Positions 12,849 through 60,913 of a stretch of DNA of 64,000 nt are shown here, piece after piece. The notes beneath the pieces are model-generated. The model did not search any database. It saw only the letters and a list, made by a program, of their open reading frames with translations, and had not been told where the DNA came from. How positions within the stretch are numbered: the stretch's first letter is position 1; each line of letters begins with the position of its first letter. Source of the stretch: Azolla caroliniana (lineage: Eukaryota > Plantae > Polypodiophyta); the NCBI GenBank assembly GCA_043228905.1, contig JBHGNT010000017.1, positions 18,042,001 through 18,106,000 of the forward strand. Direction: 5' to 3'. The position numbers and the translations under genes are program-made.

Positions 12849-12910
12849 GCTAGTGTAATGGTAAGACATTACATTATTAACATGGAGGTGCAAGGTTCGA
12901 ATCTTGCCCT
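12849..12910 (+). promoter_or_regulatory. tRNA-like Pol III A/B-box unit in the element B LTR (copies ~15640-15700 and ~19568-19628)
   Basis: TAGTGTAATGGTAAGACA ... GCAAG-GTTCGAAT-CTTGC with tRNA-like spacing. Confidence 0.55.
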
Positions 12911-13014
12911 ATACATGTTCCATTTATTTTGCTATTTTCTTCTATTTCTTCATTTTTTATTGAATCTAATACTATATACGTTTTTCACGTAGTGTACAAA
13001 ATACACTACGACAC

Positions 13015-22835: not shown

Positions 22836-24693
22836 AAACCCTACATTCCTTGGAGCCGGAAGCCGATTCCAGATTGAAACCCACAAAGCCTAAGGACTCC
22901 ACCATTCGTCTCCCTAGTCGCGGTCCCGCCTAGGATCCTACACGTACTCGCGGAATACCGCGACATATCTTTGGTGAACCCGACGTGAAAGGCGGCAAGG
23001 GAGAATGGAGGTCGATGTAGAGGCTTCGTGGTGAAGGCAATGTCAAAGGCGAGGATGAACATACACGGAAGAAGGGTGGATGAGAAACGGTTTGGAAGCC
23101 GTTGAGAGTGCGATCGAAGAAGTTGATCATATGCGGGAGAACGGGATCCGGCAATGTGGAGAAGGTATGGACGGACCCGGACGAGAACTGTGAGAGCGGC
23201 CTTTCGGATAACCGATCCCAAAGGGAGGAAAGACTATATGTTGATACCACGGGAGAGGGTGCGGAGAAAACCGCCCTCTCGGCAAGGGGAGAAGGACGGC
23301 CCGAGAAAGGGTTAGGAAGACGTATCGGAGGCCTGAGGAGGATCCTTCACATCGGATCTAGAGACTTCGACGGTCGGCAACGGGGTCTACGTAAGACCAA
23401 GAGGTTGATGGTGGCGGCAAGGGGACAAAGGCGAATCAACAAAGACGAAGAAGGGGAAAGTCGGGAATTGACTCGACCGAAAGACAACACAAAAGGCGGG
23501 AGTAGAGAAAGGAAGCCCAGTCCTATGGGATCCTCACACTGACACCGGCAGTTCAGGCCGACATGGCAACGTGAGACCGAGTGAGAAGGATGGTGGCAGC
23601 AGAAAACGGGACCCAGCAACACAAAAGAGCGGATTGGGAGCCGGTGAGATGGGAGCTGGCAAGACTCGAATTGAAAAAGGGGCGAACCCTTACCGGTCGG
23701 TTACAGTTTCGGAAGGAGCCAGTAAGGGCAAGCAAGGAGTAGTGTGCCAAGCCGGAAAGGCACACCTGGGAGCAGATCGAGAGACGTGCATGTGGCCATT
23801 AAGGGCCGGTTTGAAGCACAAGTACGGGACGACGTTCGGCACGGGCGGTGCCGAACAAGGATGGTGGAAGACGGCACATGACAGTGTCGGGAACGAGGTA
23901 ACATGGGTGCGTAACAGACTGCACGGTTGAAGACCGGAGACAGTATCAAGAGCCGGAGAAGGATCCTCCACACTCGCTTTGGAGATCTCAGCGACTCAGT
24001 CAGAGTGGCAAGCCAAGCCTGAGATGACAAGCCGGTGGGGACGAGGGGACGACGGCAAGCAAAAGGCTCTGGACCGGTCGCAAGGGCGCGATACGAAAGG
24101 GGGCCAAGCGGGCTAGTACAGGGTGTTCCTCGGACACGGAGGACACCGGTATGCGGAGAGGAAGGCGATGCACAATCTGGCCGGGCAAGGGCCGACAACG
24201 CATGCGAAAGGGTAACCGGAGTTCGGCACGGTGGTGCCGAACTATTAGAGATTAGGTACTAAAGTAAGCATAAAATAAGGATATATCAATGATAGATCTA
24301 GAAAGAATAGAGAGAAAAGAGAGAAAGAAGGGTGCCGATCCACCCGACCACCCCCGAGCGAAGGGATCGAGACGGACTCGAGCCTCGATCGGCGTCCCAT
24401 ACCACCGCCTTGGCGTCGAGTCGTACCTGGACGATAGCGCGCTTGCTACAAGAGTCGTTCCACTCACGGACAGAGTCTCGACGTAGTCAATGCATGCCCA
24501 AATGAGGGTAGCTAGGCCTCTTATTTATAGTAATTCTCAAGGCCCCCAGCCATGTTCACACTTGGCCTCATGGGTTGTCTCAATCCCGAGGATTAAAAGT
24601 AATCCTCCCCTTCTTTAGACTCTTTGTTTAAACCTCACACTTATCCACGTGTATAGAATACTACGACAATTCTCACCACGGGATATTATATGG

Positions 24694-27600
24694 TCATGCC
24701 CGTAACATACTCCCCCTCTTTAAAACATTGCACTCTTGCAATGGAAAGTTAGGGAAGTTAGTTCTTAGAGTCGTTTCGCGTTCCCATGTGGCATCCTTGA
24801 TTGATTTATCCATCCATTTTATTTTAAATTCTCGGATTTCCCTAGCACGTAATTTTTTTGTTTTAACATCGAGAATTCTTTCTGGTACATGTGGTTTAGA
24901 AGATAAATCTTCAGAAGTAACCAGAGTTTTAGTTGTGACTGTATTGTCGCCAGAACCTAGAAGTTCTTTTAGACGACTTACATGAAAGACTGGATGGATT
25001 CCAACACCATCGGGAAGAGCGAGACGATAGGCTGATGATCCAATGCGTTTGAGGACTGTAAAAGGTCCACAAAACCGTGGGGCTAACTTAGCGCACTTAC
25101 CCGTAGACAATGTCTTAGAATTGTGAGGTACACGTAAAAATACCTTCTGTCCAGGGCTGAATACACGAGGTTGCCTGTGATGATCGGCATAAAAACGCGC
25201 TCTATCTTGAGCTGTTTTTATATTATCCCGTGCAATATGCAACATATCTTGCATATCCCGAAGAAAGTTTTGCGTACTTCGCAACTCATCATGATGTATA
25301 TTAACATCAATCGGGGCTCGTGGCTGAAATCCATACATCAACATAAAAGGACTATATCCCGTCGACGTATGCTTGGAGCTGTTATAAGCAAACTCCAAAA
25401 TTGGGAGGTAACGTTCCCATTTTGTTGGTTTTGCACCAACGTATGCTCGAAGCATGTCCTCAATAATTTGATTTACTCGTTCTGTCTGTCCATCGGATTG
25501 AGGATGATCCGTGGAGCTCATGCTCAACGTAGTTTCTAACTTCTTAAAGACTTGCGTCCAGAAGTCACTAGTAAACTTCGGATCTCGGTCACTCACGATA
25601 TCCATCGGTAACCCGTAAAAACGAAATAAGTCATCAACGAATTGGTAAGCCAATTCAGGAGCTGTTACCGTGGCAATAAATCTGGCCATTTTAGTTAGTC
25701 TGTCAACCACAACCCATATGGCATCATGACCTTTTTGGGTGCGAGGAAGGCTAACAATAAAATCCATGGATATACTTTCCCACTTATTATTGGGAATGTC
25801 CAAGGGATGTAAAAGTCCTTCGGCTTTAAGTCGCTCGGCTTTGTTAACCTGACATTGGTGACATTTAGTCACATAGCTATGTATGTCAGGACGCATCTTA
25901 GGCCAATAAAATTGAGTGGAGATGAGAACGAGTGTACGATGTATTCCAGGGTGCCCTGCTGAGGGTGCATCATGGCATTCAAAAAGAATTCTCTTTTTGA
26001 CCTCAGGTAAATCTGGAACACAAACCTTCCCATTACGGTAGAGCAGACCGTTAGCAATGTGGAAGTATTCCTTCGAGGGTGTGGTGGTGTCTGTTCCAGA
26101 CTCGACTCTTGCCCAGTATTTTGCAAAATAATTGTCATCAGGATACTTTCCTCGAAGGTGATCATAAAGATCTGATGTTATTTCAGTGAAGCTAAGCATG
26201 TTAACTTCACGGATGCGACTTAGTGCATCAGCGACAGTATTCATGGAACCTTTACGATATCGTATGGAAAAATCAAAGTCCTGGATGAGATCAGCCCATC
26301 GTGCCTTACGACCTTTCAGGTCTTGTTGGTCACAAAAATATTTCAAGGACTCGTGGTCCGTAGTTACCACAAAGCGATTTCCATAAAGATAATGGCGCCA
26401 TGTTTTGAGCGCATGTATAACCGCAAATAATTCCTTTTCTTGAACGGTATACCGACATTGAGCAGAATCAAGTTTCTTACTCTCGAATGCTATTGGTTTA
26501 CCATCTTGATACAAGACAGCACCTATAGCATAATCGCTTGCGTCGGTTTCAACCTCAAAAGGTTTTGAAGGATCGGGTAAAAGAAGTGAAGGAGCCTTGC
26601 ATACCAAGTCCTTGAGTTCCTTAAAGGCGAGGTCTAGTGTAGCATTCCACACAATAGGTTTTGTAGACTTACGCGTTTGACCTTTTAGAAGATCAGTAAA
26701 CGGCGTCGTCAATTGTGAGTAATTACGAAGAGATTTTCGCAAAAATCCGACAAAACCAAGGAATGATCGAACTTCTCGAATATTCCGAAGAGTGGGCCAA
26801 AGCTTGATTTTCTCGATGCGAGAAGGATCAATTTCAACTCCTCGTTCGGTTATGAGATGTCCAAGATAAGTAATTGATTTCTTGAAGAACTCACATTTTG
26901 AGATCTTCGCGTAAAATTGTTTGTCACGCAATATTTGTAAAACAAAGCGGACATGTCTAGCATGTTCTTGTAATGTACGGCTATAAACTAAAATATCATC
27001 TAAGAAGATAACGACAAATTTTCCAAGTTGTTCTCGGAAAATGTCATTCATTTCTTGTTGAAATGTAGCCGGAGCATTGGTCAAACCAAAAGGCATAACC
27101 AAAAACTCATAATGGCCGTAGCGCGTACGAAATGCTGTTTTAGGAACATCGTCCTCACTTATTCGTATTTGATGGTAGCCAGTACGGAGATCAAGTTTCG
27201 TAAAATACCGAGCTCCCTGGAGACGGTCAATTAGATCGTCAGCCCGGGGCAATGGGTACGAATTCTTGATTGTCACTTTATTCAAGCGTCGGTAATTAAT
27301 ACACATACGCCATGTGCCCTCTTTCTTTTTAACCAAGAGAACTGGTGCACCCCATGGAGATTTACTATAACGTATATAACCCATTCGTAAATAGTCTTTA
27401 AGTTGCTTAGCTACCTCATCCTCTTCAGATCGACTTAGGCGATACGGAGGTATACTAATGGGTGCAATGCCAGGTACAATATCTATACGATGGTCTATAT
27501 TACGTTTAGGAGGTAAACCATCGGGTACTTCACTCGGAAAAACATCACGAAAATCGTTTACGATTTCATCAAGTTGTTTTTGTTCAAAATATGTTAATTG

Positions 27601-29118
27601 ACCCGAGACATTATCGATATTGTAAACGTGAATGTCCGGATCAAGTACACAATAAAATAACGTAGAACAAGACAACTCGGATATTGATGGACACGAGGAA
27701 ACAATCGAGAGGGATTGTTTTTTTACACATTGAATAAAATGCGTACAATCGTTGAGTACAAAAGAAATGGAATGGCGAACCCAATCAATAAATAAAGAAG
27801 AGCTTTTATTATAAAACCAGGGATAACCCAGTATTACATCGGTGGTACTAAGATTCATTACATGGAAGTCTACTTCCTCTATATAGGTATCAATAGAAAT
27901 TCCTAAAGAATGAATCGCCCCGTTGATGTGTTGTACTCTTCCATCAGCCAAGTGCACCGTGTAGGTGTGATCACTTACGGTGGGTTGGATTCCCCATATC
28001 TGTACCAAACGATCATTCACAAAATTGTGTGAGCTTCCCGAATCAAATAAAAATTGTACGGGAGATCCATTGATATACCCGTTTGCACGTAGTAAATCAT
28101 TGGGACCCAATACATAATGAGGGAAAGAACATTGACAATTACTCAAATGATGTGTATAGACCTGAAGGACATTAGGAATCTGACCTTTATGGTCTGTAGC
28201 TTTAGGTTTGGCGTCGTGCTCTTTTCGTTGGAGCTTACGACATTGCTCTTTTGTATGACCCTTCTTTTTGCAAAATACGCAAAAAGGATGTTGTCGCTTA
28301 TTATCGCGATCCATGAATTCGTTGGGTGTCTTGCGTTTCCCAACGAATTGCGACTGCTTAGTCCCGGGCGCTTCGTTGGGTTTGTTATGGTCCTTCTTCG
28401 AAGTGCGTTGATAGCGAAGAACTATCTCAACGGCCTCTTCGAAGGATTTTGGATCCTTATCGTGCACTATCCAGTGATAGTCCGAATTGGGGATGCCATT
28501 GACAAAACAAGCTATTAACCAATTGTCCCCTTCTAGACCCGATTTTTGGATTTGGGTTCTAGCATGGTGGACATAGTCTTCTAGCGAGGAAAACTTCCTG
28601 CTAGAGAGGTTCATTAAAGCTTGTGCTGCCTCGGTTCGAGAGGGAGGTTGTAGAAATTGACCCTTGAAAACTGTGACAAAGTCTGTCCAGGTCTCGGGCA
28701 ATCTCCCCAAAGTTCGGAGGCCACGCCACCAGGCGGCGGCCTTACCCCCTAGTTCTCGGCCGACATATGCAATCTTCGTACTATCTGGCGTGGGATAGAG
28801 CTCAAAATGAGACTCCCATCGGCCCAGCCACGTGCAGATTGCTTCTTCGGTTCTTTCCTTTTTATCTCCCATAAATGGCTTTACGACAAATGATGGTTCA
28901 CCCTGACGCTCATCAGGTCTATTAATCTCATTTTGGAGACTAATGACTCGTGCCTCGAGAGCACTTTGAGATTGCCGAAATTCGGTCAACTGCTGCGCGG
29001 TTGAACTAAGGAAATGTTGTACTTGTAAAATATACGCCTCAATGGACATTGTCCCAGGAGGATTTCCTTGAGGTCTTTCCGCTTGAGCAGAGGGCATCGG
29101 GTCGTTATTCTGAGCCAT
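24694..29118 (-). CDS. Intact single-ORF Gag-Pol polyprotein (Gag, PR, RT, RH, INT, chromodomain); likely start ATG 29118, ORF open to 29208
   Basis: [14 protein letters not shown]; LFDSGS; [14 protein letters not shown]; [10 protein letters not shown]; ISMDFI/SDRD/TERVN; PERILDVK...FKIKW...ATWE. Confidence 0.95.
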
Positions 29119-30315
29119 TGAATGATTATTTCTGGCAAAGAAATAAGATAAGGTCAGACAAATAGTCATAACATCTTGTCGTGGTGTAAACATATCATGG
29201 GCAAACATTAATCGATATCATGATCTCACGTCAATACCCCTTTAGACGTATGAGATGAGGTTCAAGATCAGGTTACTATGGTAACACAGAGGTGTTTTAA
29301 AAACCATGGGGGTGACAAATGAATGCCTTTCCCTGATCTCTATATCGATTTTTTTCATGGCGGCTCCCCGAGGCTCAACCATGTATGTTCGCGTCATGAA
29401 TAGTTTATACACGAAAAAAATGTTAACAATAACTATGTTTCTGTGCCCACATATGTGGTTTCGGCTCTTTAAGTCCTATTACGAGGACCCCGAAGTGCAC
29501 TTAGACCTAAAGTCTAAACATGTATTATAGTCATATGTATCAACGATGTTGTATGGTGTTGGTCATATTTGAACTCGAGACCTCGAGGACAAATACATTA
29601 AACACTTGAGCCAACCAAGTATATTGCGCGTCTTGAATGTTTAATGTTTGAGGCGTATTCGAGATATGCGAGGCATTTGCCCCTATATGTTTTTGTTTAA
29701 AAGAAACATATAGGTCAAGTGGCCTTATTTCTCCCTCATTTATTACCCACTATGGTTGTACGCTACCTAACCTCAAGCCTCGTAATTACGATGGCATATG
29801 CCAAAGTGTAACCTAATGGTCAAGCCGAATGAGCCCTTGTGTCTTCGTAGGCTCATGTGGCCCATCACATGGTCACGTCATTACGAATGCCACTCGTAAG
29901 AACGAGCTCATGGTGGCATCGTATCCATGTAACGAGGGGAGATGTTGGATACGTGTGTCATTAGAGCGACCCTACTTGATGTGGATCAAGCCCGACGTAT
30001 TCAACATCATTTTGGCTATACGAGGTTCGTTACGTAACGAAATATCAAAGTGACCAACGGGAATTTCAACAATAAAAATTGTTGATAAAAGGGATGGTGA
30101 CAACGCCATTCTCACAAAAATGTGAGGACGGCCACCAAAATCCTCTCCCCAAGTAGGAAAACATTTGATATGAATCACGTAATCTAAAATATACACATAT
30201 GTCAATATATCACATATATACGATCAGAGACGTATATAAGTGACCACATATGCGTATACTAAATGAATCGTTTTTTTTTTATATAGCCAACAATGATGTA
30301 TTCGGGATACGTAAT

Positions 30316-30560: not shown

Positions 30561-33196
30561 GGACATATATAAACGTTTAAGATAACCAATTAAATACCAC
30601 GTCAACATCATTGAATATATGAAAAAAAAACTACATATTAAGTATACACATGTATAGAAGGGAGAAGAAAAATTAGATAAAAAATTAAGGAAAATTTACC
30701 GAAGTTCTTTCGCTAATCCTTGTCTGCATGAAGGCGACCGCACAACGATCAATCGCCATCCCACGCGAAGACAAAAAGAAAACCAAAAGAAACGTTAGTA
30801 CATAGGCTCTGATACCAAATATTAGAGATTAGGTACTAAAGTAAGCATAAAATAAGGATATATCAATGATAGATCTAGAAAGAATAGAGAGAAAAGAGAG
30901 AAAGAAGGGTGCCGATCCACCCGACCACCCCCGAGCGAAGGGATCGAGACGGACTCGAGCCTCGATCGGCGTCCCATACCACCGCCTTGGCGTCGAGTCG
31001 TACCTGGACAATAGCGCGCTTGCTACAAGAGTCGTTCCACTCACGGACAGAGTCTCGACGTAGTCAATGCATGCCCAAATGAGGGTAGCTAGGCCTCTTA
31101 TTTATAGTAATTCTCAAGGCCCCCAGCCATGTTCACACTTGGCCTCATGGGTTGTCTCAATCCCGAGGATTAAAAGTAATCCTCCCCTTCTTTAGACTCT
31201 TTGTTTAACCCTCACACTTATCCACGTGTATAGAATACTACGACAATTCTCACCACGGGATATTATATGGTCATGCCCGTAACACGAACTATGAGGAGGG
31301 AATGTCGGCACACAGAGGTGCTGAAAGGGAGTATAGGCGCGAAGGATGGTTGCCGGTTAAGGTGATCTCGAACGGAAGGTTGGAGAGGGATCCTCCACAC
31401 CGGTTTCGGAGACTTTGGAAGTTCAAACCGCCGAGGCAATGTAAGAACAAGGAGAAGGAAGGTGGTGGCAAGGGGACGAAGGCAACGGGCAACAACACGG
31501 GATGGCAACCGGGACGACGTGAAGGGCACCGACATGGAGGTCGGGGTGACGGCACGCTCTACTGAGAGAGAGCGCGACGAGCGAGGTAGAAACAAGGAGC
31601 GCATAATGGGGTCACCTAAGGACCGAAGAATGAGTGCGCATTCGGAGGACGACAATGACACATGGGTAGCGCCTACCGGAGGCAAGCGTGGATCAGATGG
31701 AGCCGATGGATCAGGGCCGGTAAGGAGCCAACAAGACGGTCGGGTGTCAGGAAGGCAGAGAACCCAGTTGATCACCGTCGCCGAAATCTCTCACCCTTTT
31801 CTTTCTTGGCACGTATCGGTGGACGTGCAATTTGGTGGGGGGCAGATGTCGTGAAGATTTCCAGCTACGGTGTGAAACTGGGGTGGAAAGGGCAAGTCGG
31901 TGGTGTGCAACATGGGCACATGTATAGTAGTAATATGGTATATAGAATAAGGGGAGAACTTATCCCACATTGTAACATCTCTCCCTCCTTGGGCTATAAA
32001 AGGAAGGGAGGGGTCACTTTGGAAGGGGTTGCCAATTTTGGAGTTAGAAGGGTATACCACTTAGGTCTAGGGTTTGGTAGTGTTCTTCCTCTTCATCTTA
32101 TTCTTGTTCCCTTAGGGTTTCTACTTGGGTCTTTTCACCCTATTTCGTTTAGGGTTCCATTTTGAGCTTTCTTCATCATTGTCTCGTGGGTTTGGTTCAT
32201 TCTTTTGAGTGGAGGTTAGTATTCTGTTTAGGTTTTTCTCCCGGAGAGAGTTCGTGCGAGTTAGGGTATGTTGTTTAGGGTTTCGGTTGCTACCCTCTCT
32301 TCTTCGTGTGAGAGTTTGGTTTGGTTTGAGGGTTCCTACAACAATGGGTTTAGCCATTCTGGTGGCGGTGCTTGGAGGTTCGGTTTCCTCTCCTCGATGG
32401 AGAGCGTTTCGCATGGCGGCCGGTTTGAGAAGGGAGGACGAAGCGGCACGGGAACACTCCATCGTCTTCGGGGCGTGACCAATGATGGACGTCGCGGTCC
32501 CGGCGGCCCATTTGACTCACCTTCACCAGTCCCCTATTCTTATCTTGAGATATTAACCGATTGTTTGTATTAGTCACTGGATTCAGGGCATATAACCATC
32601 TTGTTGTAAAGCTCTTGTAATATATATTCATGTTAGTGTATATCTATCTTCCTTGTAACATATTTGAGTCGGGTCCATATTCGCGTTGAACTGTTTTGTG
32701 AAACCCTACATTCCTTGGAGCCGGAAGCCGATTCCAGACCGCAACCCACAAAGCCTAAGGACTCCACCATTCGTCTCCCTAGTCCAAGACCCCCGCGGTT
32801 CTTCCTAGGATCCTACACGTACTCGCAGAATACCGCGACACCGTGCTCTTGTTCCCGGCACCGCCGTGTGCATCCTTCCGCCGTCCTTGTTCAGCACCGC
32901 CTGTGCCGAACACTGTCCTGTACTCATGCTTTGAATCGGCCCTTAATGGCCACATGCACGTCTCTCGTTCCGCTCCCAGGTGTGCCCTTATTAGCTCACC
33001 GCTCCTTGCTTGCCCTTATTGGCTCCTTCCGAAACTGTAACCGGCCGGTAAGGGTTCCACACTTCGTCAACTTCGGGCTTGCTGATTCCCGTCTCGCCGG
33101 ATCTTGATCCGCTCTTTTGTGTTGCCGGGTCCTGTTTCCTACGGCCACCGTCCTTCTCACTCGGTCTCACGATGTCGTGTCGGCTCGAGCTGCCGG

Positions 33197-36171: not shown

Positions 36172-39100
36172 GCAGAACGAGAAATCTATATTCAAAAATC
36201 TTGTAAAATTCTCTATACATACAACGTGCTCATTAGCATTATTTATACAAGTCCTCGGAGGACTGACAGAAGTACAGCGTACTTCAATGCTCACACGAGC
36301 ATTTGACACTAACTACGAGACTATTAATGCCTAGTAGTCTAGGCTACTAGTAGGCTTCCAGTTACTACTGCCCCCAGCTCACCGGCTCATTAGCTCATCG
36401 GGTTCTCACCAGCTCACCGATCTATCTCGCTCACGGGGCTCAGGCTTATTCAGCCGATCCGGCTCCAGTTGAGCTTGCCACTCAACACTCCCCCTCAAGC
36501 TCAACTTGAGGTTGGTTTGTAGTGTCAGTGTCCGTGGTAGACAATCCTTCCACCCGGCTCGCGCTCCTCGTCCGGTCCAGTCTCTTCTGCCACAACCCCT
36601 CTGGTTCTTCGCACCTCGACCTCCTTGGTCGGCATGTCTGCTCAACAAGCCCAATTCAACTCCCTCGCTATTGTGACTTTGGCGCTTGTCGACCCGTCGA
36701 TTCCTTCGTGTTGGCGTCGACTTTCGTTGCCTTCTCGTCCGCTTGGCCTTTCAGATTTGTCTGAATCGGCACGCTTTTTCCAGCACTCGCTTTCTCTGTG
36801 GCCCTTTTTGCCACAATACCAGCATTCTGTGTCGGCCTTTGCTTGCCGGCCTCCGGCGCCGCCTTGACTCTCCCTGCTTGTAGAGGGTCCGGAACTACTG
36901 TCGGCACGATCTTTGTGCCGTCTTTCCTGCTCTTGTCAACTGCCTCCATTGCTGCCGACCCACCTCGTCTTCCATGCCCACGAGGCCTATCCGCCTCCGT
37001 GTAAAGCATTCGGTTGTCTGTGGGTGCACTTGTTGATGCACCGGCGTGGTTCTCCTCTACAAGGAGGATCAACTGTAAGTCGAAAAACGACGACGTATTC
37101 TCTCTTGTGCATACTGCTATCCGGAAAACTCGGAACTTAGACACCAAGCCCCCAAGACATACCTGTACCATCTCATTTTCCTCTACAGTGACGTTGATAG
37201 AGGCAAGTGAGTCAAAGATCTCTTTGATCCAGACCGTGTAAGTGTAATCAGCCACCGACATGTCCTTTTGTCGGACATTGCTTAATTCTTGTTGGAGTTG
37301 TAGCTTCCGGGCTATAATGCTTGCGGCGAAGACCTTCTTTAGTTTTCCCCAATCTTCCTTTGGCGTCTTGGCATCTCGGATGTGGCTCAACAGCTAGTCT
37401 CCGACACTGGACGCAAAACAGTACATCACCCTGCTTGCCGCTTGTTCCCACTCTAGGAAGTCCTTGTGTGTCGCATCAGGTGTTGTGTTGTAAAAGAAAT
37501 AGCGTGCAGAAGCAATATAAAACCGAACACAGAAACGCAGGTTTAATGGAGAGCTTAGAATATACATAGTATGCGGGAGAGACAGAGAGAGAGAGCACAC
37601 AGAAAATCAATTCAAAAAGAATACTCAATGTGTGCATCGTATGTGTTCAGTGAACACTTTTATACAAGTCCATACAGACTGATAGAAGTACGGTATACTT
37701 CAACGCTCACATGAGTGTCTGACACTAACTTCGACACATTAACTACCTAGCAGCCTAGGCTGTTACTAAACTTCCAGTTATTGCAGGTTCCGGCTAACCG
37801 GCTCCCTAGCTCACTGGCTCACCAATACGGCTCATCCTTCCGGATGCCGATCCGGATCCAGTTGAGCTTTCCGCTGAACACTCCCCCTCAAGCTCAACTT
37901 GAGGTTGGATCGTAGTGTCAATCTCCATGGCAGTCGGTCCTTCCACCCGGCTCCTTCTAGCGTCACTCCGCCTCACTCGCGCTCCTCGTCCAGCCGGTCC
38001 TGTTTGCCGCGACCCTTTTGTTTTTGCGCACCTCAACCTCCTCGGTCGGGTTGTTTGCTCAACAAGCCCAAATCAGCTCCCTCGTTGTTGTGACTTCGGC
38101 GCTTGTCGATTCACCGATTCCTTCTTGTTGGCGTCGACTTTTGTTGCCTTCTCATCCTCTTGGCCTTGAATTGATCCGGTTCTTCTGAATCTGTCTGTTG
38201 AACCGAATCAACTGTCTCTTATTCGTTCCAGCTCTTGTTCGAATCGGTCGCTCCCAATTTGTCTTCCGGTTCCAGGCCCTTCATTACATCAGACCATGTC
38301 CGGGTCTTGGCCTTCTTCTTCCGGTTGACTCTATCCTTGTTGACTCTGTCGCCGCTACCACTTGTTCCGACTTGTTTGGATGTCAACTCGGCTCCTTTCT
38401 TCTTCTTGTCTCCCCCTTTGTCGGTTCTTCCCTCACCAGCGCAACCGGCAATTTCTTTGCCTTTGCCTGTTCCGGTGTCTTTGCTCGTGCCCGTTCTCCC
38501 CCTCAAGTGTGGCACGTCGAGATGCTGAACACCAAGCATTTCGGTGAAGTGTTACAACTTGTCCGATCCGAGCGGTTTGGTGAAGATGTCGGCAACTTGC
38601 TGATCCGTATGAACATACCGAAGTTCGACTTCACCGCTCAGGACAAGCTCATGCACAAAGTGGTAGTGCACTTCTATGTGCTTTGTGTGAGCATGGAATA
38701 CGGGGTTCTTGGCGAGCTGCATGCTGCTCATGTTGTCACAGTAGATCAGGATCGGAGTCGGCACCTTGATCCACAGGTCTTGCAGCAGTCGCCGAAGCCA
38801 AATGGCTTCACAGGTGGCAATGGTAACGCCCCGGTAGTCAGCCTCAGTGCTCGAGAGGGCCACTATTGGCTGCTTTTTGCTGCTCCACGCAACAGCCGTG
38901 CTACCAAGGGAAAACATATAGCCGGAGGTGGATCGGCGATCCGATGCATCGCCGGCCTGGTCGGCATCGGTGTAGCCGACTAGCTCTTCGGTTATACCAT
39001 GCCAGTTTAACAGTCCTCGTTCCTTCGTGCCGCTCCCATAGCGCAAAATTCGATGCGCGCACAGAAGGTGCTCCACGGTCGTCTTCTATATATATTGGTT

Positions 39101-42100
39101 GATCACGCCAACCGGATAACTGATGTCGAGTTGGGTGATTGTCGAATATATAAGGCTTCCAACGATTTGTCGGAACCGTTTCTCATGGCAGGCCGGTCTA
39201 TAGTCGGGACGGACCTTCTCGTTCCGGTCCAGGGGTGTAGAGATCGGGCGGCATTCCGTCATGCCGAACTTGTACAGCATATTCAACACATAGTGTCGTT
39301 GTGAGAGCAATATGCCGTCGAGGGTTCAGATCACCTCGATCCCAAGGAAACAGTGAAGTTCCCCCACGTCCTTCATCTCAAATGCGTCCGACAGTTGGGA
39401 CTTGACTCGGTTGATTTCATCGAGTCCAGGTCCGGTGATGACTAGATCATCAACATACAACAGGATGCAAACTGAACCGTCCGGACCTTGCCGGATGAAC
39501 AACGAAGAGTCAGACTTAGAGGCCGCAAACCCCATCTTACGCAACCGATGCGTGATCGTGGCATTCCAAGCTCGGGGGGCTTGCTTCAGGCCATAAAATG
39601 ACTTCTTCAACCGGCATACCGCCGACTTGTTCATCGCTGACTGGAAACCGGGGGGTTGGGTCATAAGGACCTCTTCTTCAAGATCGCCTTGAAGAAATGC
39701 ATTCTTCACATCCATCTGGTGAAGATACCACCCCCGTGCCGCAGCAACCGCCAACAGCACATGAACTGTCGTCATCTTCGCTACCGGAGCGAAGGTCTCG
39801 TCGTAGTCGATTCCGTGGGTCTGCGCGTATCCCTTCGCCACTAACCGGCCCTTGTACCGGTTAACCGAACCGTCGGCATTGTACTTTACCTTGTACACCC
39901 ACTTACGTCCGATCGATTTACAGTGTCAGGGAGGGTTAACTAGGTCCCATGTGTCGTTGGCATCAAGTGCCCGCATTTCTTCCTCCATAGCAGCACACCA
40001 ATTTTCATCCCTTGCCGCTTCTGCGTAGCTCTTCGGCTCACGCACTTCCGCCACCTTGGTCATGTACGCATATCGATGCGCCATGTTCTCATTGTACCCA
40101 TACCGCCTCACGGGGTTCTTCTGGCGGGAAGACCGGCGTAACTTATCGTTACCCGGTTTGAGGTCCTTCTTGGCCGGTTCAAACTTCACTCTCAAAGATC
40201 CACCTTCATCCTTTCCGTAGTCGGATTCGCTCCGATCCGACTCAATTCTTTGCGCGTGAACCGTCTCCTCGGTTCCTTGCGCAGGGAGAGCACGGCAGAG
40301 TCTCCATTACTCGTCGGTTCTTCATTGGACTGGTCATCCCGACTCACCCGCTCATTCGGTCCACTTAACCAAAATGAGGTTGGACTCTCTTCTAGAGTGC
40401 CAAGGTTTCATCTTCTAACTGGACCGATTCAGGCTCACTAGCCTCATCCTCCGGTATCGGCTCGGGGTCGGAAGTCGGAGCCGGTAAGGCATACCATGAT
40501 GCCGTCTCATCAAACTCAACATCCCGGCTAACTCAGACCTGCTTCGTCCGGGGGTTATAACATTTATACCCCTTTTGCTCATGCGAGTAACCGACCAGGA
40601 TGCATTTCTCTGACTTTGCATCCAACTTCCTCCGCTTCTCATCCGGCACATGCACATATGCAATGCTACCGAATATCCGAAGGTGTCTCAAATTCGGCTT
40701 GCGCCCGAAATATAGCTCATGCACGGACACCTTGTCACCAATCCGGTTTTGGATGTAGACGACCGTCCGGACTGCCTCCGCCAAGTAGAAATGGGGCATG
40801 CTCTTCTCCTCTAGCATTGCCCTTGCCACGTCAACAATCGACCGGTTCTTCCTTTCGGCCACACCATTTTGCTCCGGTGTGTATCTATAGTAGAACTCTC
40901 TCTAAATTCCTTTCTACTGCAGATAACTGTTGAATTGGCTGGAAAAATATTCTTTTCCGCCATCCAACCGCAGGCACTTGATATTCCTCTCCGTTTCCCG
41001 TTCAACCCGGCTTTGCAGGTTCCGGAAACACTCGAAGACTTCGCTCTTCCGCTCAATGAGGTAGATCCATATGTGCCAGATGTAGTCATCGATGAAGAAG
41101 ATGAAATACCGACTCCCGCCAAGACTAACGTTCTGTGCCGGTTCTCATACATCCGAATGAATAAGGTTGAGCTTGTTACGGCTACGGTTTCGTTCAGTGG
41201 GGAATAGAAGCCGGTGTTGCTTCCCGAGTTGGTAGACTTCACATATTTGGGCCTTCCGGCCACTGAACTTCGGCAAACCGAAAACAACTTGTTTCGTTTG
41301 TAGGACTTGAAGCCACCGGTAATTGATGTGGCCAATCCACTTGTGCCAAAGATCAATATCCGATTCAATCTTCTGTCCTTTGGCGATCAAAGCGGTGTCA
41401 ACGTCATTAGTGTCGAGGATGAACATCCTCCCATCTTTGCGCCCTTGCACAATGATTTGGCCCTCTTCCTCGATGAAGCACCCAAGGTGCGTAAACCGCA
41501 CCTGTATCCCCTAGTTAACGATCTAACTAACTGACACCAGGTTCTTCGTGATAGTCGGAATGTGTAATACGTTCATCAGCTTCCCCCTCTGTCCAACATG
41601 GATCAAAGGGACTTCTCCGACATGCACGATTGGGTGTGGAGTGTCATCTCCGGTTTCGACAACTCCTGGTTGTTCCGGTTTCTCCAAGAAAGAGAACCAC
41701 TCTTTGTGGTTCGTCATGTGATTCGACGCATTGGAATCAACATACCACACTTCCTCTGATTTGGAAGTGGTCTGCTTCATCGAGTTAGCCTCGTGTTTTA
41801 TCACCAAGGTTGGCCCTTTACTGGCTTTTCCGGTTTTGGATCCTCCCGATCCTTCTGCGTAGTGCAAGTATTGTTGGTTCTCTCTGTCGGCCTTGCTGGA
41901 TCCGGATCTGTCCAAATCGGCGCGCTTCTTCCAACACTCGCTTTCTCTGTGGCCCTTTTTACCACAATACCAACATTTTGTGTCGGCCTTTGCTTGCCAG
42001 CCTCCGGCGCCGCCTTGACTCCCCCTGCTTGTGGAGGGTCTGGAACTACTATCGGCACGTTCTTTGTGCCTTTGGTCCTGCACTTGCCGGCTGCTACCAT

Positions 42101-42494
42101 TGCGAGCCGACCCGCCTCATCCACCACGCCCACGGGGCCGATCCGCTTCCGTGTACAGCATCCAGCTATTGGTGGGTGCACTTGTTGATGCACCGGCGTG
42201 GTTCTCCTCTACAAGGAGCATTGACTATAAGTCGAAAAATGACGGTGTATTCTCCCTTGTACACACAGTAATTCGGAATGCTCCGAACTTTGACGCCAAT
42301 CCCCCAAGACAGATCTGCACCATCTCGCTTTCCTCGACATTCACATCAATGGAGGCTAAGGAGTAGCATATATCTTACTAGGACCAAATGGTCAAAACAA
42401 GGAGTGCGTAGAGATAGGCACAAGACGATTAGAGGGTGCTTAAGCTAAACAAGAGAAAGTAGGCAACATACACTAATGAGAGAGAGAGAGAGAG

Positions 42495-42570
42495 AGAGAG
42501 ATGTTTTTAATTCAAAGAGGGAGAGATGTTTTTAATTCAAAGAGGGAGAGATGTTTTTAATTCAAAGAGG
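42495..42570. repeat. Three tandem 25-bp units followed by (CT)n in the PLE 3' region
   Basis: GAGAGATGTTTTTAATTCAAAGAGG x3; reads ATTAAA on the element strand. Confidence 0.85.
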
Positions 42571-42574
42571 GTGG

Positions 42575-42629
42575 TGGTCTTAGGCAAACTAGTTTCGCTC
42601 AATAGTGGAGCTCTTCAGTGCAAAGACCA
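42575..42629 (-). ncRNA. Type I minimal hammerhead ribozyme
   Basis: Minus strand UGGUCUU-U-GCA CUGAAGA GCUC-CACUAUU-GAGC GAAA C-UA-G UU UGC-CU-AAGACCA: full core, stem I, stem II and palindromic mini stem III (AACUAGUU). Confidence 0.85.
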
Positions 42630-42871
42630 TTACAACAAGAGAATGTGATTTATAAAGGGGTGGGAAGGAAGAGGGAGTGAGAGAAAAAGGAGTGGGGAGG
42701 ATTTGATTTGTGTAGTAGATGAGAGAGAATAGAATGTGGTGATGAGAGAGAGAGAGAGAGAGAGAAATGTGTGTAGGAAAGTGATAGGGAATGAGAGAAG
42801 GGAAATTAGTATAATGATGATGGTGAGGGGGGAGTTTTTAATGTGATGAAAAAGGGGGATTTGGGATAATA

Positions 42872-43073
42872 TTAAGTGGGGGATGTGGGTGAATTATTTG
42901 AAAACTTAGTGTTAAGTGGGGGATTTGGGTGGATTGTTTGAAACTTTAGTCTTAAGTGGGGGATTTGGGTGGATTGTTTGAAAATTTAGTCTTAAGTGGG
43001 GGATTTTGGTGGATTGTTTGAAAACTTAGTTTTAAGTGGGGGATTTTGGTGGATTTTTTGAAAACTTGGTCTT
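42872..43073. repeat. Five tandem 40-bp units overlapping the PLE stop codon
   Basis: AAGTGGGGGATTTGGGTGGATTGTTTGAAAACTTAGTCTT-like unit x5. Confidence 0.9.
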
Positions 43074-44747
43074 AACTAGGAGGGCATTTAAGGACTTAGA
43101 TTTTGTCCAACATACGAAAGGGCGTGAGATGCTTGTAAGCTCGGGATCTAACATTAAGTCATTATAGAGATTTTTTAGAAAACTATGAATGCCTAGTTTT
43201 GGGGTATGTTTGGTGTATCTAAGTTTAAAGATTGTGGGGTTAAGGGAAGTAATAGTTTTGGGTTGATATAGGAGTGTTTTTCTAAGACTAAAAGGTATTT
43301 TCTTATAGCATTTTAGTATAAAGGATGGAGGGTAACCACGGTTAACTAGTCTATTGAAAAAGAGTTTTTTCATTTGGTAGAAACCTAATGGGGTGCTTTC
43401 TCTAATAAGATATCTCTTCACTTCATTAGTGATAAAGTGTTGTTTCGTATGGGAAGGATGATCCGATGAAAAAGGCAAGTATTGGTATGAATTGAGAGGT
43501 TTTTGAAAACAATTGAATAAGAAAGATGAATTTTTGAGGTTGATCCATATGTCTAAAAAAGGTAGCCGAAAGGGGGAAGTTTGAATGGTAAGCTTGATGG
43601 AGTTATTTGTGTGTGAAGGGTAAAAGTCGAGATATTCTAAAAGTTGAGATTTGGTGCCTGTCCAGACCCCAAATGCATCATCAATATAGCGGGTGAAGTA
43701 GAAGAGATGGGGGGGCGATGGTTGTAAGTTTTCGAGATATACTAAAAAGAGGCATGCATATACGACTGAAAAGTTGCTACCCATGGCCGTACCTTTTATT
43801 TGTTGGTAAACTACGTCATCGAAAGTGAGATAGTGATATTCTAAAATAAGGGCACTAAGGGTATAGATGAGATTTGTTTTCGAAGGGGAAAAGTGGGGGG
43901 TGATTAGACTACGTAGGGCTTGGAGTCCTAACTTAGGGGGGATACTAGGATAGAGAGATTCAACGTCAAACGTGAATAAGAAACTATTAGATGGTGGGTG
44001 TAGGTTTTCTAGTGATTGGATTAGTGTGTGAGAGTCTTTTAGATATTGTGGTTGGAGAAGGAGGATTGGTAAAAGTTGGTGGTGTAACCACTTCGATGTT
44101 TGTTCAAATAAGGAGTTATTATATGAACAAATGGGCCGGAAACCCATAGGTGTTTTGTGTAATTTAGGGAGGAAATAGAGGTTGGATACTTGATATCCTT
44201 TTTTGGGTTTGTGGAGGATGAAATTAGCTTCAATTGGGGAAAGTGTACCTAAGTGGTTTGTTATTATGTTATTAAGGCGGTATAGTAACTCTTCCAAGGG
44301 GAAGTGGCTGACTCTCTTATAGGTGGTAGAATTCGAGAGGTGTTCTATGGCTTTGGTGTAGTATGTGTCTTTATCTAGAACACATACTCCCATATTTTTA
44401 TCGGCTGGGAGGATGATAATGTGTTTGTTGTGTTGGAGGCTTTTAAAGGCTCTAGAGAGGTGGTATGGGATTCTAGTGTTTATGGGTTTAGTGTTGTGTG
44501 CTATTTGGTTAAGGATGTGTTGGTGTTTTTCTATTATGGAGACTAGGGGTGGATATTCTGTGGGTGGCATCCAACTAGGGTTAGGTAGTTTGAAGGGGTT
44601 GAGAGGAAGTGAAGGTGTATTTCTAAAAAAATGTTTTAGCTTGAGGGATCTCGAGAGGTGGGTGAATTCTTTTAGGATATTGTTGGGTGAGGGAGGTGGG
44701 GATGGTAGGATATACTTAAGGCCTAGGTTTAGCAATTGTGTTTCATT
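43032..44747 (-). CDS. Penelope-type reverse transcriptase plus thumb, uninterrupted (~570 aa), no C-terminal GIY-YIG; start missing
   Basis: LLNLGLKY, ILPADKNMG, YFLPKLHK, RPICS, TFDVESLYPSI, QIKGTAMGS, YFTRYIDD, LPFLDI, YLPFSSDHP, NRGYP. Confidence 0.9.
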   Translation of the reverse strand, partial: NETQLLNLGLKYILPSPPPSPNNILKEFTHLSRSLKLKHFFRNTPSLPLNPFKLPNPSWMPPTEYPPLVSIIEKHQHILNQIAHNTKPINTRIPYHLSRAFKSLQHNKHIIILPADKNMGVCVLDKDTYYTKAIEHLSNSTTYKRVSHFPLEELLYRLNNIITNHLGTLSPIEANFILHKPKKGYQVSNLYFLPKLHKTPMGFRPICSYNNSLFEQTSKWLHHQLLPILLLQPQYLKDSHTLIQSLENLHPPSNSFLFTFDVESLYPSIPPKLGLQALRSLITPHFSPSKTNLIYTLSALILEYHYLTFDDVVYQQIKGTAMGSNFSVVYACLFLVYLENLQPSPPHLFYFTRYIDDAFGVWTGTKSQLLEYLDFYPSHTNNSIKLTIQTSPFRLPFLDIWINLKNSSFLFNCFQKPLNSYQYLPFSSDHPSHTKQHFITNEVKRYLIRESTPLGFYQMKKLFFNRLVNRGYPPSFILKCYKKIPFSLRKTLLYQPKTITSLNPTIFKLRYTKHTPKLGIHSFLKNLYNDLMLDPELTSISRPFVCWTKSKSLNALLVKTKFSKNPPKSPT

Positions 44748-46821
44748 TTGCTGGATCCGGATCTGTCCAAATCGGCGCGCTTCTTCCAGCACTCGCTTTC
44801 TCTGTGGCCCTTTTTACCACAATACCAACATTTTGTGTCGGCCTTTGCTTGCCAGCCTCCGGCGCCGCCTTGACTCCCCCTGCTTGTGGAGGGTCTGGAA
44901 CTACTATCGGCACATTCTTTGTGCCTTTGGTCCTGCACTTGCCGGCTGCTACCATTGCGAGCCGACCCGCCTCATCCACCACGCCCACGGGGCCGATCCG
45001 CTTCCGTGTACAGCATCCAGCTATTGGTGGGTGCACTTGTTGATGCACCGGCGTGGTTCTCCTCTACAAGGAGCATTGACTATAAGTCGAAAAATGACGG
45101 TGTATTCTCCCTTGTACACACAGTAATTCGGAATGCTCCGAACTTTGACGCCAATCCCCCAAGACAGATCTGCACCATCTCGCTTTCCTCGACATTCACA
45201 TCAATGGAGGCTAAGGAGTAGCATATATCTTTGATCTTCAAGGTGTAATCAGTCACTGACAAATCGCGTTGTCGTAGGTTGCTCAACTCCTGTCGGAGTT
45301 GAAGCTTCCTGGTTGTAGTTCTTGCGGCGAAAATCTTCTTCAGATTTCCCCAAGCATCTTTCGGCATTTTTGCATCCCGAATGTAGCTTAGGAGTTGTTT
45401 GCCCAGACAAGACGCGAAGCAATACAATACTCTACTCGTCGATTTTTCCCACATAGGGAAATCTCTGTGTGTCGATTCGGGTGCTATGTCATTTGCTCCA
45501 TTGACATAGCTCCAGTAACCGTGCCTGAGCAGGTACTGGTGCATCTTGTAGGACCAAGATGCGTAGTTGTTTCTGTCAAGCTTCTCCGTTGGAAGCGAGC
45601 TAGCCATGCCTCTATCCATCGGTTTTTACCTGTTCTTCTTGGTTGGTTTTCTTTTCAAGTTATGTCGGCTGCAGAGGTTCTCAACCCTCACGCTCTGATA
45701 CCATGTAAAAGGAATAGCGTGCGGAAGCAATAGAAAACCGAACACAGAAACACAAGTTTAATGGAGAGCTTAGAATATACATAGTACGCGGGAGACAGAG
45801 AGAGAGAGAGCACATAGAAAATCAATTCAAAAATAATACTCAATCTATGCATCGTATGTGTTCAGTGAACACTTTTATACAAGTCCATACGGACTGACAG
45901 AAGTACGGTATACTTCAACGCTCACACGAGCGTCTGACACTAACTTCGAGACATTAACTACCTAGCAACCTAGGTTGTTACTAAGCTTCCAGTTACTGCT
46001 GGTTCCGGCTAACCGGCTCCCCATCTCACCGGCTCTCTTGCTCACCGGCTCACCGATCTGGCTCATCCTTTCGGATGTCGATTCGGATCCGGTTGAGCTT
46101 GCCACTCAACATGTGTCGTTAGCTCCGTCGACATAGCTCCAGTAACCATGCCCAAGCAAGTACTAGTGCATCTTGTATGACCAAGATGTGTAGTTGGATC
46201 TGTCGAGCTTCTCCATTGGGAATGAGCTAGCCATTCCTCTATCCATATCTTTTTGTGTCTGTTCTTACCGGGTGTTAGGGTTTGTCTTTAGAAGCTATGT
46301 CAGCCTCAAAGGTTCTCAACACTCGCGCTCTGATACCATGTTAAGACTAACGTGTGGAAGCGTTTAGACAAACAGGTTTACCGGCAAAAACAGAAAACAG
46401 AAAAATAAGGAGTTAAACGCAAGAGATACGCTTACGCGGGAGAGACAAAGAGAGAGAGACTGTGTGTGAGCAAAACAAGACATCTATATTCAAAACTCTT
46501 GTAAAATTCTCTACAACGTGCTCATCAGTACTATTTATACAAGTCCTCAGAGGACTGACAGAAGTACAACGTACTTCAATGCTCACACAAGCATCTGACA
46601 CTAACTACGAGACTATTAATGCCCACTAGTCTAGGCTACTACTAGGCTTCCGGTTACTACTGGACCCAGCTAACCGGCTCCCCAGTTCACCAGTTCGTTA
46701 GCTCACTAGGTTCTCCCCGGCTCACCGATCTATCTCGCTCACCGGCTCAGGCTTATTCAGCCGATCCAGCTCCAGTTGAACTTGCCGCTCAACACTTTAC
46801 CTTTTTATTGATGTACCCAAA

Positions 46822-58131: not shown

Positions 58132-60913
58132 ATGGGGTTGCCCATAACTACTTCTTCATCATCATCACCACCATCACCACCACCACCATCATCATCATGG
58201 CCTCTCACTGTGGTTGCAGGTTTTGGCATGAGAAGCCTCCTGTTTCTGCTGCTTTCCATGGCCTCCATCACTCTCTTGCTCCTCCTCTCCACTGATTTCC
58301 TCACCTTTTCCTCTTCACAACTCCTCACCATCTCCACACCATCTTCAGGTAAGTTCCTTCTTTCCAAACTTTATATTTGTCTTTTCTTTATTCAATTAGT
58401 TCCTTCTTTCCAGACTTTCCTTATATTTTTCTTTTCTTTATTCAATTAGGTTAGTATAGTTTTTGTGGTCTATGAAGTGCTTTGTTTCTCCAGCTTTGTG
58501 ATCTATTTGCTCTTCAAATGCTTGGCTTTATGATCTATTCTTCCTCCTATTGTATTGCTTATGTTGATTTTCATAATGTCCATACATTCTGTTGCTATTC
58601 TGGTTGTTAGCCAGTTCAAGATCAAGTGCCAGTTTAACAACTTAATTTCTATGAGCATTCTATGACCTTCAGGAATCAATAAAGCTATAGAATATACTAC
58701 TAGCCCATCACTTCGGCAACTGTCACCCACAACTCTTTACTTATGCCTCATTTAACCAAAAGATCGGTATCGTTACATAGCTCTTTATTAGGGTAGAATC
58801 AAGATAGTGCATCATGTTGGAAGCAATAGATTCTAAGCTAGTAAAGAGTGCATTGCAAATGTGAGGTTGATTGTCTTAAACAAGCATTCATGGGTTATTG
58901 GTTCACTTTCTTTATCACTTTTTAGTATGATTGGGGAGACTGTATCCTATCTCTAATGATGTAAGGGAAACACAATGAGAAGTAACTATCCTTATCTCCA
59001 TATTGGATTGCTAGTATGATTTCTCTGCTTATTATTCCAAGGAATAGGATTGATCTTTTTAAAGTTGTTTTTGATCCAAAACACATGTTTCATGCCACTC
59101 CACCCATACAGACAAATTCTTATTTTTGTTGAATTCTAGGGTCTTATCCAGGAATCTTGATCCATAACCAGGAACAAGAATCATTATATAATCGTGAAAC
59201 AGACTCCATCATCAACAGTTCAAATGTGGGGACATGGAATAACCATGGAAGCCCAAGATCTGCAATCGAGAAGCACAAGGAATATTCAAAGCTCATCAAA
59301 CCAGATCTCGTAACATTAAAGCATGGAATCCCAAGCTCAGAAATCAATATGTGGAAGGAATCTTCAAGCAAGATGAATGATGAAGGTGTTATCGATACGA
59401 ATCACGAAGAAAAGGGCCTTAGGGAAAGGATTATTCAACATGACATGACAGATACATATCGAGGGGGTCATAGCTCGGCCCCAAAGGCGAGAAGTGTGTG
59501 CCATTGTGCCTTAAAAAAACATTATAACGTCACAATTTCTTAATTAAAGGATTCTAACTATTCCCGTTCGGGTCTATATAACTCTTTTATCCCAGGCTGC
59601 AATTACTACACGGGGAAGTGGGTGAAAGGTGTGAACAAGCCCCTGTATTCGGGGAAATCGTGCAAGAGATGGTTATCTGGGATGTGGGCATGTCGAGAGA
59701 TGAATGGCCGGCCAAGCTTTGACTATGAAAGCTACAAATGGCAACCGGATGGTTGTAATTTGCCTGTCTTCCGGAGCCGTGATTTCTTGTCGAGGTTGGA
59801 TTTCTCGAAACTCTCATCAAGCAAGGGAACCATGATGGAATCTCATGAATAGAAATTAAGTCTGGTCCATTGGGCATGGTCATTGCATACTTTTCTGTTG
59901 TTGGGTATTTACCAAAATACCTGTTGGTTTTATTGAATGGCCAGAATACCGATAAGGAGTCGCATTTTCTAGTCATTTGTGTAGGGGGTATTATTTTGGT
60001 GTTTTCCTCTTGGGGTATTTTGGAAGTGACAAAATGTTTTGTGTTGTGTAGGATGCGAAACAAGGTTTTGGTGTTTGTCGGGGATTCGATAGGAAGGCAG
60101 CAATTCCAATCGTTAATGTGCATGCTCACGGGCGGGAAGGATGATGCTTTAGTGGACGATGTGGGCAAATACTATGGTCTTGTGAGGAGAAGAGGCGAGA
60201 TACGAGCCGAAGGGACGGCACAAAGGTTCCTAGAAAGCAACACGACGATAGTTTATTATTGGTCGGCCACTTTGTGTGAACTCCAAGCTCTTAACGCAAC
60301 TTGCAAAGATACCGAGTATGCAATGCATCTCGACCGGCCCGCCACATTCATACAGAAGTACCTCAAGGTCATCGATGTCTTGGTATTGAACACGGGGCAT
60401 CATTGGAACCGAGGAAAGATGAATGCGAACAAGTGGGTTATGTATGTAGAAGGTAAGCCTAATACTAATGTAAGGCTCTCCAAGGACTTTGGGTTTGCTC
60501 GGAACTTCACCATACACAAGGTCGCCACATGGCTTCATAATCAACGTGAGCGGAATAAAACAAGAGCGGAAGTTTATATAAGGTCGTTGTCCCCAAGGCA
60601 TTTTTTCAATGGGGATTGGGATTCGGGAGGCCGGTGCGATGTTAGCTTGGTGCCGGTCGAAGCGAAAAACATTAGTGGTCAGAATGTGTTGGACTCTTCT
60701 GTGGAGAGTGCGGTTTTAGGAACAAGGATACATATGCTTAATATCACGTATATATCTCAATTTAGAGATGAAGCACACATTTCCAAGTATAGACCTCAGC
60801 AGAGTGGTCAAGATTGTCTACATTGGTGCCTCCCTGGGGTCCCAGATGTGTGGAATGAGCTTCTCTATGCCGAAATTCTTTCAAAGGAGATTGGAGTTGT
60901 TAAGGATGTTTAG
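58132..60913 (+). CDS. TBL: TRICHOME BIREFRINGENCE-LIKE polysaccharide O-acetyltransferase; exons 58132-58348, 59140-59493, 59596-59794, 60052-60913
   Basis: N-terminal TM anchor; CNYYTGKWV...WAC...YKWQPDGC; GDS motif (FVGDSIGRQQF); DCLHWCLPGVPDVWN; phase-compatible GT-AG introns. Confidence 0.93.

Follow-up and report, generated by a model that had tools for sequence, protein, structure and literature searches.

Long flanking duplications at insertions of an endonuclease-less Penelope-like element in Azolla caroliniana

In a 64,000-nt stretch of the Azolla caroliniana genome (contig JBHGNT010000017.1, positions 18,042,001 to 18,106,000; “the window”), a truncated Penelope-like element (PLE) is bracketed by two nearly identical 484-bp copies of host DNA. 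Long flanking duplications are a real, clade-wide feature of this type of element: they occur at 22 of the 69 insertions that could be scored in the 523-Mb genome, in several subfamilies, with lengths of ~38–4,030 bp (median, ~500 bp). The 484-bp repeat probably formed when a reverse transcriptase (RT) without a recognizable endonuclease (EN) took a free 3′ end at an existing break as its primer; the two ends of the break, overlapping over 484 bp, would then have been bridged. Here, we describe the locus, the insertions related to it, and the explanations that could account for them.

The PLE interrupts the gag region of a copia retrotransposon on the minus strand (Table 1). The two copies of the duplicated segment differ at exactly two positions (41934 A/44789 G and 42059 G/44914 A; 0.41%), and identity is lost sharply at either end. 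PLE sequence fills all 2371 bp between them, starting at 42377 with the 3′ end common to the family. The original prediction of a near-identical pair exactly bracketing the PLE is thus borne out, as is its claim that the long terminal repeats (LTRs) of the host copia are more diverged, with 34 of 408 columns (8.3%) differing. The segment is single-copy, and collinear with alignable flanks, in all 11 of the closest PLE-free relatives of the host copia (L111–L121); this is the state of paralogous copia copies rather than of a true empty allele. The duplication is therefore absent from copia relatives that lack the PLE. Since these relatives are only ~87–89% identical to the segment (~11–13% away), neither an ancestral duplication nor recombination between copia elements explains a pair that differs by 0.4%. 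Both mismatches are G-to-A changes, one in each copy, with one in a CHG and the other in a CG context, and G is the majority base in copia relatives at both sites (7/10 and 7/11). Judged by sequence context, this pattern is the signature of methylcytosine decay after duplication, not of read error.

Table 1. Features of the duplicated locus, in window coordinates
Feature	Position	Strand	Remarks
Host copia 3′ LTR	37489..37880	-	Right end approximate
Duplicate copy 1, host segment (copia gag)	41893..42376		484 bp; right end is the putative priming end
TATCTT, 6-nt microhomology of target 3′ end with element RNA tail	42371..42376	+	Tail read from C14 tandem junction
5′-truncated EN-less Penelope-like element	42377..44747	-	2371 bp of ~5.06-kb full-length unit
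Conserved 3′ RNA signal: CGCACUCCUUG motif and 4-bp hairpin	42382..42408	-	Just upstream of copying start
Minimal type I hammerhead ribozyme motif, palindromic stem III	42576..42628	-	Predicted cut between 42587 and 42586; z -2.5
40-bp tandem repeats, RT stop/3′ untranslated region	42872..43089	-	
Reverse transcriptase open reading frame	43032..44747	-	Open from truncation point to stop; ~first 50 of 622 aa missing; no GIY-YIG at end
Duplicate copy 2, host segment	44748..45231		Begins with 2-nt microhomology (TT) to element
Host copia 5′ LTR	45704..46111	-	Right end approximate; 8.3% diverged from 3′ LTR

The window element belongs to a family (family A) for which we examined 47 loci: the window locus, L031–L069, L105–L109, L129, and L130, drawn from 40 scored loci among 131 candidates and from a pattern search. 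Eleven were left out, either as duplicates of another locus (L050, L055, L063), for want of a 3′ end (L064, L069), for unclear ends (L105, L108, L109), or for lying in satellite arrays (L035, L039, L041); the duplicate-like match at L041 is no better than other satellite monomers. Duplications flank 10 of the other 36 insertions, with lengths of 111, 125, 262, 484, ~530, 818, 982, ~1200, ~1830, and ~4030 bp. Eight of the 36 true flank pairs pass a strict test applied to both junctions, with L040 and L107 being less clean. By contrast, when the left flank of one insertion was paired with the right flank of another, a single combination in 1260 passed, and it lies inside one repeat. Seven insertions (L033, L042, L043, L044, L046, L051, L068) are blunt or carry deletions of ~12–130 bp relative to paralogous empty sites, the sizes being approximate because several of the empty-site homologues are only 70–90% identical. 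The remaining 19 have no duplication within 3–13 kb. Empty-site homologues were sought for L034, L045, and L049 and none was found; a young LTR sits at the junction of L032. Short target-site duplications (TSDs) of 5–30 bp show no excess over chance, with the longest exact junction repeat being 7 nt among 27 loci and 8 nt among 702 control pairs.

Sister subfamilies show the same behavior. An RT search gave 608 candidates, of which 73 were scored and 38 loci taken, with RTs 38–73% identical to that of family A; five lack a visible 3′ end. Twelve of the 33 others are flanked by duplications (~38, 112, 119, at least 155, 198, 286, ~390, 634, 668, at least 934, 3142, and 3826 bp), a count that is a lower bound because about half of the loci had only 2–3 kb of flank. 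The original prediction would have been refuted by other copies having short TSDs or none; instead, long duplications recur, in a sample that leans to young, intact copies. The ~38-bp case, L198, speaks against a strict minimum duplication length of ~110 bp, and a 4.3-kb, 93% repeat at L176 was not counted because it does not adjoin the element.

Divergence between duplicates rises with the age of the element (Spearman 0.52, p 0.02, n=19). The youngest duplications (L165, C22, L170, L178) are 99.9–100% identical, while older ones are 2–7% diverged, with insertions present in only one copy at L053 and L061. Between the 3826-bp duplicates, which are 99.97% identical, lie more than four element units in tandem (G000:C22:8941800-8971799, L202–L204). 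These 5.58-kb units are 99.9% identical, and the arrangement suggests rolling-circle or repeated-jump copying in one event. Two other arrangements were seen in family A. At L105 (G000:C1:28662150-28662301), two short 3′-end stubs lie in tandem, each after the same ~36-bp host sequence, reflecting either re-priming or later local duplication. L060 and L063 (G000:C16, 12.81 and 12.54 Mb) have opposite orientations and a common 3′ flank despite being 270 kb apart, possibly as the result of an inverted segmental duplication.

The junctions point to how the element is joined to its target. Most copies start with part of a common motif ahead of the 3′ end. A copy on C14 has a tandem junction and an inverted 3′ end, and its tandem junction identifies the common motif as the element's own tail. 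The target end, where it can be read from the second copy, matches this RNA tail by 1–6 nt (mean, 3.2), and by 2 nt or more at 9 of 11 resolved duplication junctions (p 5e-8 against an assumed chance rate of 10%); the match at the window locus is 6 nt. The position of the join is not fixed, sliding from −4 to +5 in family A, over nine positions, and no cut-site consensus is evident by eye around the breaks at the 11 resolved duplication junctions. Just upstream of the priming region, a conserved motif and hairpin are present in six subfamilies, with compensatory changes: in 10 hand-picked related sequences, 35 of 40 cells are paired, and double changes occur in three of four pairs. At L046, an abortive 11-nt extension precedes the full copy.

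Far junctions can carry additional sequence directly before the duplicate. These additions comprise three telomere repeats, (CCCTAAA)3, at L178, inverted 3′ ends at L175 and L193, and an inverted piece of the RT at L170. The simplest reading is that telomerase or the RT lengthened a second free 3′ end before it was joined. The filler at the 5′ junction of L193 (oriented 6421-6631) includes the inverted 3′ end of a sister subfamily; a further piece of the filler may resemble 5S ribosomal RNA or a Cassandra LTR.

Longer copies define a full unit of ~5.06 kb with ORF1, the 622-aa RT open reading frame (ORF), 40-bp repeats, a GA microsatellite, a minimal type I hammerhead, and the conserved 3′ end. 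Truncation at the 5′ end is frequent, and pseudo-LTRs (pLTRs) of 167–362 bp are found in L172, L177, L179, and L181. ORF1 is helical and of low complexity. It has no significant match in Pfam, and its AlphaFold model is too poor for use (pLDDT 37.8); Atlas matches to DUF8422 clusters (score 0.93–0.94) are a lead only. The hammerhead core motif is present in the window copy and in six subfamilies, with no hammerhead match in an Rfam search. Four copies whose ends lie no more than 1 nt from the predicted cut (L129, L105, the inverted piece of the C14 copy, and the pLTR of L179) suggest that the ribozyme is active.

Several observations concern related sequences. ORF1 of one family A copy (L036:6960-6990) contains a second copy of the 3′-end motif (16 nt exact) followed by CCCTAA-like repeats in the sense direction; this may be a relic unit junction or a telomere attachment, and the homologue P0126 stops there. 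The left flank of L040 and the right flank of L067 contain a short tandem non-coding repeat with a shared CAAGGAGTGCG 3′ motif and a GA microsatellite, which is probably a non-autonomous partner of the clade. At L102 (G000:C8, past the 5′ end of L065), there is a LINE-like (long interspersed nuclear element-like) C-terminal zinc-finger fragment; ~1 kb beyond it lies a hammerhead motif of the element's type, in the opposite orientation to L065.

Searches against Pfam recovered neither GIY-YIG nor any other nuclease domain from the 622-aa RT, from the ORF1 proteins of five subfamilies, or from the ORFs of four sister subfamilies. Among 169 homologues of the RT, the nearest named ones are from Cryptomeria, Selaginella, and Ginkgo (39–41% identity). 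PLE proteins bearing GIY-YIG match at 31–33% identity across the RT, and the alignment with an EN-bearing relative extends only to the thumb. A genome-wide GIY-YIG search of limited sensitivity gave one match among nine candidates. A sequence search of the PDB gave no match. In a FastTree phylogeny of 110 of 121 proteins (those <480 aa were dropped, and the set includes no named Coprina reference), the RT falls within a 27-member land-plant clade (SH 100) that is itself nested in a broader “DKN” group without EN; a precomputed GIY-YIG annotation is found for none of the 27 members. Inspection of P0002 and P0124, rather than direct alignment with PLE-X, showed neither CxC/CxCX1-8C motifs nor an insertion in the fingers. 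The labels PLE-X and Neptune-derived were both dropped on the basis of motif inspection and the tree. By its RT, pLTRs, tail, and hammerhead, all recognized from sequence, the element is classed as a PLE; it is EN-less and probably of Coprina type.

Family A is not filed as a typical Coprina element, because most copies are interstitial, along chromosome arms, and reverse-complement telomeric repeats are missing from its 3′ region near the hammerhead. The C22 sister subfamily has such repeats near its 3′ end. Two family A copies lie in satellite arrays within ~14 and ~52 kb of the end of a large contig; a third copy, also embedded in this satellite, is located near the middle of a small contig. 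At L201 (G000:C60, near the contig end), the 3′ end of an element adjoins ~13 telomere repeats, followed by satellite and then a long telomere tract; the repeats have the opposite orientation to that of priming on a G-rich overhang.

In the mechanism that we favor, 1–6 nt of a DNA end would anneal to the RNA tail beside the conserved hairpin, much as in telomerase, with the RT using 3′ ends that it did not make itself. The cDNA would then be joined through microhomology to the other end, to which telomerase or a further round of priming would sometimes already have added sequence. Finally, host fill-in would fix the overlap as a duplication, while non-overlapping ends would give blunt joins or deletions, with resected ends accounting for the deletion class. 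Priming on a free 3′ end independently of an endonuclease, as in the original prediction, is supported because GIY-YIG is missing, the microhomology slides, a blunt/deletion class exists, and second ends carry additions. For multi-kilobase overlaps, replication-associated breaks on sister chromatids would be favored, because melting of 3–4 kb between two nicks is unlikely. Of the sources of the overlap named in the original prediction, a simply resected break gives deletions rather than a duplication. Paired nicks on one duplex and overlapping sister-chromatid ends give identical sequences. Likewise, the term “target-site duplication” is apt in that the target was single before insertion (11/11 paralogs), but by sequence two staggered nicks on one duplex are inseparable from sister-chromatid overlap. 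Related processes have been described. Fill-in of breaks with complementary 3′ overhangs gives tandem duplications (PMC8355091), L1 is able to bridge sister chromatids (PMC7058536), and telomerase insertions at breaks comprise a mix of blunt joins, deletions, and duplications (PMC2246262).

A number of points weigh against break capture. No duplication is found at 47 of the 69 insertions, and the change to the target is unresolved at 40 of them. Telomerase insertions at breaks are accompanied by duplications at only ~5–16% of loci (PMC2246262, Table 1), compared with ~32% here. The loci are top-scoring matches rather than a random sample, the correlation with age is modest, with outliers at L061 and L166, and no read spans the window locus. 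ORF1, with its untrustworthy structure model, could still contain an unrecognized nuclease, and a sloppy nickase combined with primer annealing would likewise yield microhomology without a consensus.

These last points lead to the main rival explanation, classical target-primed insertion, in which two nicks lying far apart on one duplex would be made either by an unrecognized ORF1 nuclease or in trans by an endonuclease of a LINE or of the host. The outcome would be a genuine long TSD of the kind proposed for Dualen LINEs. The geometry is the same as that of a TSD, ORF1 has no assigned fold, and the median 900-bp duplications of Dualen are ascribed to its two endonucleases (PMC9977147). Moreover, 608 first-look RT candidates make the clade abundant for one dependent on spontaneous breaks. 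We nevertheless regard this explanation as unlikely: no ORF tested has a Pfam nuclease domain, a cut-site consensus is not evident, the 5–30 bp TSDs expected of coordinated nicking are missing, a deletion class is present, and overlaps of 3.1–4.0 kb would demand long unwinding.

Two further explanations are each very improbable. A duplication that postdates the insertion, produced by local segmental duplication or by ectopic recombination of two PLE copies carried by different copia elements, is conceivable in a repeat-dense region, given later rearrangement at loci such as L105 and L060/L063. However, the duplicates are far closer to one another than to the nearest other copia copies, and their ends match the ends of the element within microhomology, at the window locus as well as at the majority of the other 21. 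An assembly artefact, such as the merging of filled and empty haplotypes into one path, gains some room from the near-identity of the youngest duplications and from public short-read contigs (four runs), none of which bridges the 44747/44748 junction or spans the locus; these contigs, possibly from other accessions and with rare variants dropped, neither confirm nor refute the assembly. Such merging is hard to reconcile with two transitions at CG/CHG sites split between the copies, or with older duplications that are diverged and carry one-copy insertions. Nor would it yield telomere repeats or inverted pieces at junctions, or place the ends of the overlap on RNA-tail microhomology.

Among comparable systems, Selaginella Sm1/Sm2 and conifer EN(−) PLEs are land-plant members of the Coprina type. 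EN-deficient Coprina-type PLEs, including those of land plants, are described as attaching to telomeric overhangs (PMC8557442). The Azolla element resembles them in having a PLE-type RT without GIY-YIG, an upstream ORF1, and a 3′ hammerhead. Unlike them, family A is interstitial, lacks telomeric repeats near the hammerhead, appears to prime on arbitrary DNA via a short tail, and is often flanked by 0.1–4 kb duplications. PLE-X elements, from Chara and Selaginella, are likewise plant PLEs that have hammerheads but no EN and that integrate outside telomeres, by a route described as an open question; they belong to Chlamys, which has CxC/CxCX1-8C motifs and an insertion in the fingers, and those of Selaginella target 28S rDNA (PMC8557442). 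The Azolla RT, by inspection, has neither feature. The available part of that paper mentions no duplications at PLE-X insertions.

EN-bearing PLEs (Penelope/Poseidon, Neptune, Nematis, Hydra) differ from the Azolla element, which has neither a C-terminal GIY-YIG nor short TSDs. In the rotifer Adineta vaga, EN+ Penelope has a C-terminal GIY-YIG and 8–10 bp TSDs (PMC3846280); it shares with the Azolla element pLTRs, an optional 3′ tail, inverted pLTRs, and microhomology at the 5′ junction. The same duplication geometry is seen in a LINE. Dualen-4b_cRei of Chlamydomonas has duplications of >50 bp at over half of its insertions, with a median of 900 bp (PMC9977147). In contrast to the Azolla element, which has no recognizable endonuclease, Dualen-4b_cRei has two (APE and RLE), which are credited for the long duplications. 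R9, from rotifers, encodes an endonuclease. Its 126-bp TSD is unusually long (cited within PMC9977147), although, unlike in Azolla, the length is fixed and the element is rDNA-specific. As with L1-bridged duplications in tumors (PMC7058536) and telomerase insertions at breaks (PMC2246262), an RT product in Azolla would join two DNA ends to give deletions or duplications. EN-independent L1 insertions and L1-bridged tandem duplications in tumors are rare side outcomes, and the example shown carried the L1 EN motif (PMC7058536). Unlike in L1, the joining of ends seems here to be the standard, heritable way in which an entire clade inserts.

We found no published report of long duplications at EN-less PLEs, in a search that did not take in Gladyshev & Arkhipova 2007 and Lin et al. 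2016, both of which may treat junctions of plant EN-less PLEs, or most of the supplement of PMC8557442. How EN-less PLEs insert at interstitial sites is unexplained (Craig et al. 2021, PMC8557442). The Azolla genome offers dozens of young insertions with junctions that read as break capture, making the question directly testable. At up to 4 kb, the duplications rival or surpass in length any target duplication of a retroelement in the literature compared here, and they come from an element without a known nuclease. A broader proposal, which we find possible but somewhat doubtful, is that these telomerase-related retroelements of land plants abandoned the telomere as a clade and now spread through the genome solely by patching breaks with their RT. 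In this proposal, the RNA hairpin would serve as a telomerase-like template boundary, and insertions would record the geometry of breaks, with about a third fixing 0.1–4 kb duplications. If true, this would explain how EN-less PLEs come to lie at interstitial sites. The element would then keep a natural record of the structure of breaks in plant genomes, act as a heritable source of tandem duplications the size of genes, and provide a compact RT able to write RNA onto 3′ ends supplied to it.

The window contains other features of note. An LTR element at 12287-15804, with 727-bp LTRs that are 100% identical, an ordinary 4-bp TSD, and a 707-aa frame without a Pfam match, is very young and probably non-autonomous. 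An intact 1507-aa gypsy ORF with a chromodomain (24694-29217) is nested in another LTR element and is accompanied by LTR-like repeats at 24240-24707 and 30817-31284 that are 99.4% identical. Lastly, an exon of a host gene at 59849-60913 encodes a PC-Esterase (trichome-birefringence-like) domain.

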